From the IMG/VR virus record IMGVR_UViG_2531839130_000013: a DNA stretch of 45,266 bases; one strand, given 5' to 3'. Of this stretch, positions 16,957-17,206 are shown in pieces. The position numbers were made by a program, and so were the translations under genes. Within the stretch, counting starts at the first letter, position 1, and the number at the start of each line of letters is the position of its first letter. Below the pieces are notes generated by a model, which ran no database searches, had not been told where the DNA came from, and saw nothing but the letters and a program-made list of their open reading frames with translations. Origin of the DNA: a virus. Lineage: Duplodnaviria; Heunggongvirae; Uroviricota; Caudoviricetes.

Positions 16957-17032
16957 GGCCCTTTAGCTCAGTGGTGAGAGCGAGCGACTCATAATCGCCA
17001 GGTCGCTGGTTCAAATCCAGCAAGGGCCACCA
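16957..17032 (+). tRNA. tRNA with CAT anticodon (Met or lysidine-type Ile2)
   Basis: 76-nt cloverleaf: acceptor ggccctt/aagggcc, D-arm agctcagtggtgagagc, anticodon loop ctCATaa, T-arm ggttcaaatcc, ends ACCA. Confidence 0.85.
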
Positions 17033-17129
17033 TCACATACCGCCATTAGCTCATCGACAGAGAGTGCCAGCTTTCGAAACTGGCTGTGTGGGGCTCGGGT
17101 CCCCGATGGCAATCTATTATCTGCATTAT

Positions 17130-17206
17130 GCGTTGTTAGCTCAGCCGGACAGAGCAATTGCCTTCTAAGCAATCGGTCACTGGTTCGAATCCAGTACAAC
17201 GCGCCA
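17130..17206 (+). tRNA. tRNA-Arg (anticodon TCT, reads AGA)
   Basis: 77-nt cloverleaf: acceptor gcgttgt/acaacgc, anticodon loop ctTCTaa, T-arm ggttcgaatcc, ends GCCA. Confidence 0.85.

Follow-up and report, generated by a model that had tools for sequence, protein, structure and literature searches.

The 45,266-nt stretch of viral DNA analysed here, called the window throughout, carries the well-known ileZ-argN-argO three-gene tRNA cluster of lambda-like E. coli prophages, in which the outer tRNA genes are intact and the middle gene is a pseudogene. Homologous to ileZ-argN-argO of Shiga-toxin phage 933W, the region is very probably a small tRNA operon in a lambdoid prophage, with ileZ and argO encoding functional tRNAs and argN dead. 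The two tRNAs, the homology, the damage and its stepwise progress are directly demonstrated. The system is already known, and a pseudogene in the argN position is ordinary.

Organization of the tRNA cluster

Run with default settings on the 45-kb window, ARAGORN reports exactly two tRNAs, tRNA(cat) and tRNA-Arg(tct), which correspond to ileZ and argO (Table 1). Aligned to 933W, ETEC6 and other loci, the region features three slots with the anticodons CAU, UCG and UCU, in this order, on one strand and within about 250 bp. According to Pfam, the tRNAs are located 3' of the antiterminator gene Q and 5' of the lysis genes. BLAST searches of phage and E. coli collections show the cluster to be widespread in lambdoid prophages, with matches in 291 phage records and in 3110 of 5426 complete E. 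coli genomes. The initial annotation had described two well-formed tRNAs, CAT and Arg-UCU, lying between a methyltransferase and a lysis cassette in the position typical of ileZ-argN-argO in lambdoid phages. All of this is borne out, by the ARAGORN calls and Rfam scores of 72.5 and 70.1 bits, by the Pfam hits to a DNA methylase on one side and to a holin and a GH108 endolysin on the other, and by a gene-by-gene match to the 933W annotation.

Table 1. Features of the tRNA cluster and of its surroundings in the window.
Feature	Position	Strand	Evidence and remarks
Q antiterminator gene	14330-14704		Pfam; before the tRNA cluster
N6/N4 DNA methylase gene	15858-16907		Pfam; between Q and the tRNAs
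Putative promoter, pT equivalent	16919-16947	+	-35 TTGCAG, 17-nt spacer, -10 TATTAT; 9 nt 5' of ileZ; homology only
ileZ, tRNA with anticodon CAU, tRNA-Ile2 type	16957-17032	+	ARAGORN; Rfam 72.5 bits; 76/76 identical to 933W ileZ
argN pseudogene, remnant of tRNA-Arg(UCG)	17040-17116	+	Sub-threshold Rfam match; relaxed ARAGORN; syntenic homology to 933W argN
argO, tRNA-Arg with anticodon UCU	17130-17206	+	ARAGORN; Rfam 70.1 bits; 76/77 identical to 933W argO; tRNA-Arg in the annotation of relatives
Intrinsic-terminator-like hairpin	17220-17244	+	Terminator scan; 8-bp stem (6 G-C pairs), TTCG loop, then TTTTT; 14 nt past argO
TerB	17382-17807		Pfam; after the tRNA cluster
DUF3927			Pfam; after the tRNA cluster, with TerB, holin and endolysin
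Holin	18377-18709		Pfam; after the tRNA cluster
GH108 endolysin	18690-19256		Pfam; after the tRNA cluster

Background on the known cluster was drawn from the GenBank annotation of 933W (AF125520) and from PMC7946995. In the 933W record the slots share this order, spacing and strand, the cluster again sits between Q and the late lysis region, and the genes are annotated as ileZ (AUA), argN (CGN) and argO (AGA), with a "pT; putative tRNA promoter" and flanking terminators. The biology of the cluster has been known since this genome record, as lambdoid prophages carry decoders of AUA and AGA/AGG beside their late genes; a literature search returned no open-access paper using the names ileZ, argN and argO. 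The putative pT and the terminator of 933W are conserved in the window, as are the outer tRNAs (Table 1), and the middle element is identical at 63/77 positions. In contrast to 933W, argN is a pseudogene in the window (23.7 vs 54.8 bits in the tRNA covariance model), a DNA methylase gene lies between Q and the tRNAs, and TerB, DUF3927 and the lysis genes, not stx, follow the cluster.

The 49-nt gap preceding ileZ retains both hexamers and the 17-nt spacing of the putative pT of 933W. The promoter of the window is thus proposed by homology only, and would be weak. A scan for consensus promoters upstream of ileZ reported nothing, because the -35 hexamer matches the consensus at 3/6 positions only. 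The strong terminator-like hairpin following argO is kept in 6/6 aligned loci, and its 933W counterpart is annotated as a possible rho-independent terminator.

The flanking tRNAs

Scores were obtained with the Rfam tRNA covariance model RF00005, which has a gathering score of 29 bits. Both outer genes largely exceed this value, ileZ with a match spanning 16957-17029, argO with a match spanning 17130-17203. In ileZ the acceptor stem (7/7 pairs), the D stem and the T stem are fully paired, the T-loop is canonical and the CCA end is encoded. The only irregularity is an A27.C43 mismatch in the anticodon stem, and the ileZ copy is identical in 6/6 aligned loci. ARAGORN labels this gene as Met following the anticodon alone; its typing as Ile2 rests on 68/76 identity to E. 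coli K-12 ileX and on identical RefSeq copies labelled tRNA-Ile. Like ileX, a lysidine-modified tRNA-Ile2 with a CAU anticodon, ileZ has the anticodon loop CUCAUAA and the pairs C4-G69 and C5-G68, which are determinants for TilS. It differs from ileX in being phage-borne, in a compensatory change at pair 6-67, and in the A27.C43 mismatch, found where ileX has a G.U pair. By these sequence features the CAU tRNA is ileZ, an AUA-reading tRNA-Ile2 whose C34 would be converted to lysidine, and should be annotated as Ile rather than Met.

All four stems of argO are fully paired, the T-loop is TTCGAAT, and the CCA end is encoded. Across the six aligned loci its sequence is nearly invariant. The identity elements of ArgRS are C35, a D-loop A20 and a purine as residue 73, all of which occur in argO, with the D-loop AGCCGGACA (A20), the anticodon loop CUUCUAA with C35, and the discriminator G73. 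Judged by its anticodon loop, argO would read AGA, and probably AGG.

In four other loci of the survey described below, argO diverges completely right after the anticodon loop (...CTTCTAAGCAGCTGTGGTTGCACTCC...), which suggests a truncation, or a recombination or integration junction, inside the gene.

The middle element is a damaged argN

A permissive Rfam search of the interval 17025-17135 (111 nt) found covariance-model similarity to tRNA in the middle region, as a full-length match at 17040-17113 which scores 23.7 bits, below the gathering score, with E = 0.0029. Among other RNA families, the interval yields nothing beyond a snoRNA hit of 7.7 bits, which is meaningless. At default thresholds the element escapes ARAGORN, which calls it tRNA-Arg(tcg) at 17040-17114 once thresholds are lowered to 95%. 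The pseudogene is skipped by the standard tools used here. The E-value rises to about 1 if scaled to the 45-kb window, so that the score is not decisive alone, and the identity of the element is settled by homology to argN. The alignment to 933W argN is ungapped over 77 nt, and both sequences occupy the same slot between ileZ and argO.

The sub-threshold score and the scaled E-value would also be expected had an ordinary intergenic spacer come to look like a tRNA by chance. This reading is refuted by the ungapped, syntenic 77-nt alignment to an annotated gene and by the intermediate alleles that link the two sequences, and carries practically no weight. Nor is the element a duplicate of the UCU tRNA: it has the anticodon UCG, and matches argN rather than argO in its acceptor, anticodon and T arms. 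A protein-coding reading was discarded as well: the region holds only short overlapping ORFs, such as one at 17011-17199 on the minus strand, which cross the tRNA genes.

The initial annotation had recognized a decayed third tRNA at about 17046-17112. The decay is supported by the Rfam score, the loss of base pairs and the homology to argN, and the limits are revised to those of Table 1. It had also noted a D-arm almost identical to that of the Arg tRNA. The strings quoted are present, but they do not specifically link the element to argO, as the TAGCTCA...AGAG pattern is generic and is found in ileZ, too.

The middle element differs from 933W argN at 14/77 bases, and 12 of the changes are transitions. 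G71 and G72 are both changed to A, which creates C.A mismatches at the terminal acceptor pairs 1-72 and 2-71. Similarly, G39 to A creates a C.A mismatch at 31-39, the pair closing the anticodon loop. In the D-loop GGGAC is changed to GACAG, with loss of G18G19. Further changes are C25 to T, C32 to T, T54 to C and A58 to G; two more affect the variable region and one the T stem, and the 3' CCA is converted to CTA. Overall, 18 of the 21 cloverleaf pairs are retained (most alleles have 21), and neither the 7-bp acceptor stem nor the 5-bp anticodon stem is complete. Residues G18, G19, T54 and A58 are conserved in tRNAs, and an encoded 3' CCA is typical of E. coli tRNA genes; the element has a D-loop (AUCGACAGA) lacking GG, a T-loop CTCGGGT with C54 and G58, and ends by CTA.

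In the cloverleaf register, the anticodon loop measures 7 nt (UUUCGAA), with U33, the anticodon UCG and A37. In the minimum-free-energy fold, a 5-bp GCCAG/CUGGC stem closes a 9-nt loop, and the acceptor stem has 5–6 pairs only. The loop looks 9 nt long because its closing pair, 31-39, is a C.A mismatch. The 9-nt anticodon loop reported initially is hence a property of the fold and not of the cloverleaf, and the poorly paired acceptor stem reported along with it is real, as seen in the fold and in the mismatches at 1-72 and 2-71. The stability of the fold does not differ from that of shuffled sequence (z = -0.46). Intact argN reaches 54.8 bits in 933W and 56.0 bits in ETEC6, and the allele of the closest relative, Ec700481, reaches 26.4 bits.

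Stepwise decay of the argN lineage

The alleles related to that of the window form a nested series. From a 933W-like gene, 12 differences lead to the Ec700481 allele, three more to the Ec504838 allele, and the change of CCA to CTA is added in the window. As judged from the sequences, the window carries the most decayed state seen, reached by point substitutions only, and such a nested series is what one would expect if a gene goes on decaying after loss of its function. The surrounding tRNAs did not change in parallel: ileZ and argO show 0 differences from the two closest relatives, the remnant 4 and 16. Among 41 distinct alleles, only those of the window and of its Ec700481 sister break the pairs 1-72, 2-71 and 31-39. 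The allele of the window lineage was found in 45 of 5426 complete E. coli genomes, and PGAP annotates the remnant in none of the 45.

An alternative is that the middle element is a working, although unorthodox, tRNA-Arg(UCG) decoding CGA and CGG, in which the C.A mismatches are tolerated and the 3' end is repaired by the CCA-adding enzyme after trimming. Some residual function is conceivable, because all three broken pairs are of the C.A type, the mildest mismatch, and because 18/21 pairs and the anticodon loop UUUCGAA are kept. ARAGORN still recognizes Arg-tcg at 95% thresholds in the window, and at default thresholds in the Ec700481 sister allele; CGA and CGG are enriched in the prophage ORFs; even intact argN is less canonical than its neighbours (55 vs 70 bits). 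Against a working tRNA stand a score under the Rfam gathering value and 31 bits under that of intact alleles, and the joint loss of G18G19, T54, A58, two terminal acceptor pairs and the encoded CCA. The restriction of the broken pairs to one lineage among the 41 alleles, the stepwise damage, the missing PGAP annotation and the undistinguished folding energy point the same way, and make a functional tRNA improbable. The middle element is best described as a dead argN.

Decay in place does not account for all comparisons. The window and ETEC6 (locus L002) share a near-identical block of 668 nt (16779-17446) with 24 differences, 20 of which fall within the 73 nt spanning 17056-17128. The density of differences in the slot, relative to that of neighbouring non-coding DNA, is significantly higher in this pair (Fisher p about 2e-6). 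A simple, uniform neutral decay relative to ETEC6 is inadequate to explain this clustering, and the window and ETEC6 therefore hold distinct slot alleles, rather than copies diverged in place on one clock. The 73-nt patch suggests that the middle slot has been exchanged as a cassette between ileZ and argO. From the distribution of differences, intact and decayed slot alleles have probably been exchanged by recombination between the conserved flanking tRNA genes.

The middle slot in other prophages

The content of the slot was surveyed in 132 clusters, which were collected using the invariant ileZ 3' end as an anchor, both from IMG/VR viral contigs and from species-representative genomes (E. 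coli, E. albertii, Shigella flexneri, an Escherichia sp. and a few MAGs). According to ARAGORN, 67 clusters have the architecture CAU, Arg-UCG, Arg-UCU, and 31 have CAU and Arg-UCU only, with no tRNA detectable in between. Lys-UUU, Thr-UGU and Gly-UCC follow CAU in 14 clusters, Lys-UUU and Arg-UCU in 4. Six clusters are reduced to CAU, 4 to CAU and Arg-UCG, one features CAU followed by two Arg-UCU genes, the middle anticodon being UCU, and 5 have other architectures, each found once. Pairing of the slot cloverleaf reaches 96.1% over 41 distinct Arg and Lys alleles, and compensatory changes are seen at 4 pairs; in many phages the slot therefore holds a genuine tRNA under structural constraint.

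A slot devoid of a tRNA is nonetheless commonplace. The commonest non-tRNA allele, in which the anticodon arm is replaced, resides in 1852 of 5426 complete E. coli genomes, and is thus commoner than the intact argN of ETEC6 type (1135 of 5426). This allele, found in L024, L030, L034 and about 25 other loci, has kept the 7-bp acceptor stem, the D arm, the T stem and the CCA of argN. In place of the anticodon arm is the unrelated sequence GACGACACGATAACAGGGTTGTTGGTG, whose fold is a hairpin of 7 bp and a 3-nt loop. No Rfam tRNA match was obtained for the two variants examined (L117 and L097), and the allele is unannotated in RefSeq. Variants of the allele break pairs, and no covariation was seen among them. 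The window allele differs from it in having decayed by point substitution. Like that of the window, the Ec700481 and Ec504838 alleles, the arm-replaced alleles, deletion alleles and argN/argO chimeras all lie between invariant ileZ and argO, and none is recognizable as a tRNA gene, the call of the Ec700481 allele by ARAGORN at default thresholds notwithstanding. As the survey shows, E. coli prophages vary widely in the middle slot and can do without a tRNA there, which weakens the case for argN being important to these phages.

Some clusters deserve separate mention. In L005, L006, L009, L018, L019 and others, the argN slot is occupied by a tRNA-Lys(UUU) that is clearly a homologue of argN: the acceptor stem is the same, and pairs 7-66, 27-43 and 30-40 (tRNA numbering) carry compensatory changes. 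As judged from the sequence, the anticodon seems to have switched from Arg to Lys. In most of these Lys alleles the near-universal U33 is replaced by C33 (loop CCUUUAA), while the loop of L019 is the canonical CUUUUAU; a link of the C33 alleles to the evasion of anticodon nucleases is possible. A gene at 1616-1691 in L004 (PPompW_132418), annotated as tRNA-Lys, lacks 1 nt of the D stem (TAGC-CATC). It is called by ARAGORN, yet has no Rfam tRNA match at E<=10, and may also be a pseudogene. L032, L059 and L105 carry chimeras in which the 5' half of argN and the 3' half of argO are joined at the anticodon loop; their acceptor stem does not pair and no tRNA is detectable. They were apparently generated by deletions resulting from recombination between the two Arg tRNA genes. 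The middle slot of L041 is an otherwise intact argN with the anticodon UCU instead of UCG, and two AGA-reading Arg tRNAs are thus found in this cluster.

The retention, rather than deletion, of non-tRNA slot alleles in about a third of the E. coli genomes could mean that the middle element has taken on a new role as an RNA other than a tRNA, either as a processing spacer setting the yield of the flanking tRNAs, or as a tRNA-like decoy or sponge, directed for instance at a tRNA-cleaving defence nuclease of the host or a tRNA-modifying enzyme. The element would be transcribed within the tRNA operon, a cloverleaf-like fold persists, and phage tRNAs are known to counter tRNA-targeting defences (PMC10264068, PMC11555353). 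However, retention is expected of any short segment located between two selected genes. No conservation pattern indicates a new constraint, the lineage is still accumulating changes, the allele is rare (45/5426 genomes), and no Rfam family but tRNA matches the element. Re-use is accordingly very improbable, and the window copy is better viewed as decaying argN.

Another reading concerns the slot in general. The slot would be a fast-turnover, exchangeable tRNA cassette, with the invariant flanking tRNAs serving as recombination arms, and its diversity would stem from an arms race with tRNA-cleaving systems of hosts or competitors (such as the anticodon nucleases PrrC, PARIS AriB and colicin D), not from codon supply. 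The contents found across prophages, namely Arg-UCG, Arg-UCU, Lys-UUU (mostly with C33) and tRNA-like non-tRNA alleles, are those on which this reading is built. Were it true, the window copy would be a discarded relic of that contest. We hold it to be unlikely as an account of the cluster, in comparison with a known tRNA operon with a dead argN. Slot polymorphism outside the window might be connected to tRNA-targeting defence systems (PMC10264068, PMC11555353, PMC12409363).

Proposed operation of the operon and codon usage

What is known of such clusters allows their transcription, processing, modification and role in codon supply to be inferred for the present one. Transcription would probably start at a weak promoter of the operon itself, and Q-antiterminated late transcription would also enter from upstream; transcripts would end at the hairpin downstream of argO. 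RNase P and 3' processing nucleases would cut the transcript into tRNAs. The host TilS would convert the CAU tRNA into a lysidine-bearing tRNA-Ile2 reading AUA, and the UCU tRNA would decode AGA and AGG. Together, ileZ and argO would add decoding capacity for codons that E. coli uses rarely and the prophage more often. The point substitutions gathered by argN open its acceptor stem at the top and its anticodon stem at the base, destroy D-loop/T-loop contacts and remove the encoded CCA, and the gene would now be only a transcribed spacer between two live tRNAs.

Codon usage was compared between crude ORF calls of the window and a host sample of 15 K-12 genes, and is given as codons per 1000 (window vs K-12). 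AUA (7.4 vs 3.6), AGA (5.4 vs 0.6) and AGG (3.3 vs 0.6) are all more frequent in the window. The enrichment relative to this small sample fits with codon supply by ileZ and argO, and agrees with the earlier proposal that the AGA-reading tRNA supplies a codon rare in the host. The initial annotation had pointed to the late genes of the prophage for such a comparison: AGA, AGG and AUA are indeed raised in the window ORFs, but the early region shows a larger excess than the late genes. The argN codons CGA (6.3 vs 3.6) and CGG (12.4 vs 5.7) are enriched as well, and lack of demand therefore does not explain the loss of argN.

Other RNAs

A few additional RNAs were noticed in Rfam scans. The small RNA STnc100 resides within a few kb of the tRNA cluster in 4 of the 8 loci scanned, at 3207-3349 in L001, 2620-2809 in L078, 5050-5242 in L117 and 575-761 in L032, and is located downstream of the cluster in L001 and L117. 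Two of these four loci also carry AgvB. Neither RNA has a match at the gathering threshold in the window. A strong match to the sok antitoxin RNA (105.5 bits) at 12150-12321 on the plus strand of the window suggests the presence of a hok/sok-type toxin-antitoxin locus in the early region of the prophage. A full-length DicF small RNA (68.6 bits) is found at 4534-4585 on the minus strand, as in Qin-like and other lambdoid prophages.
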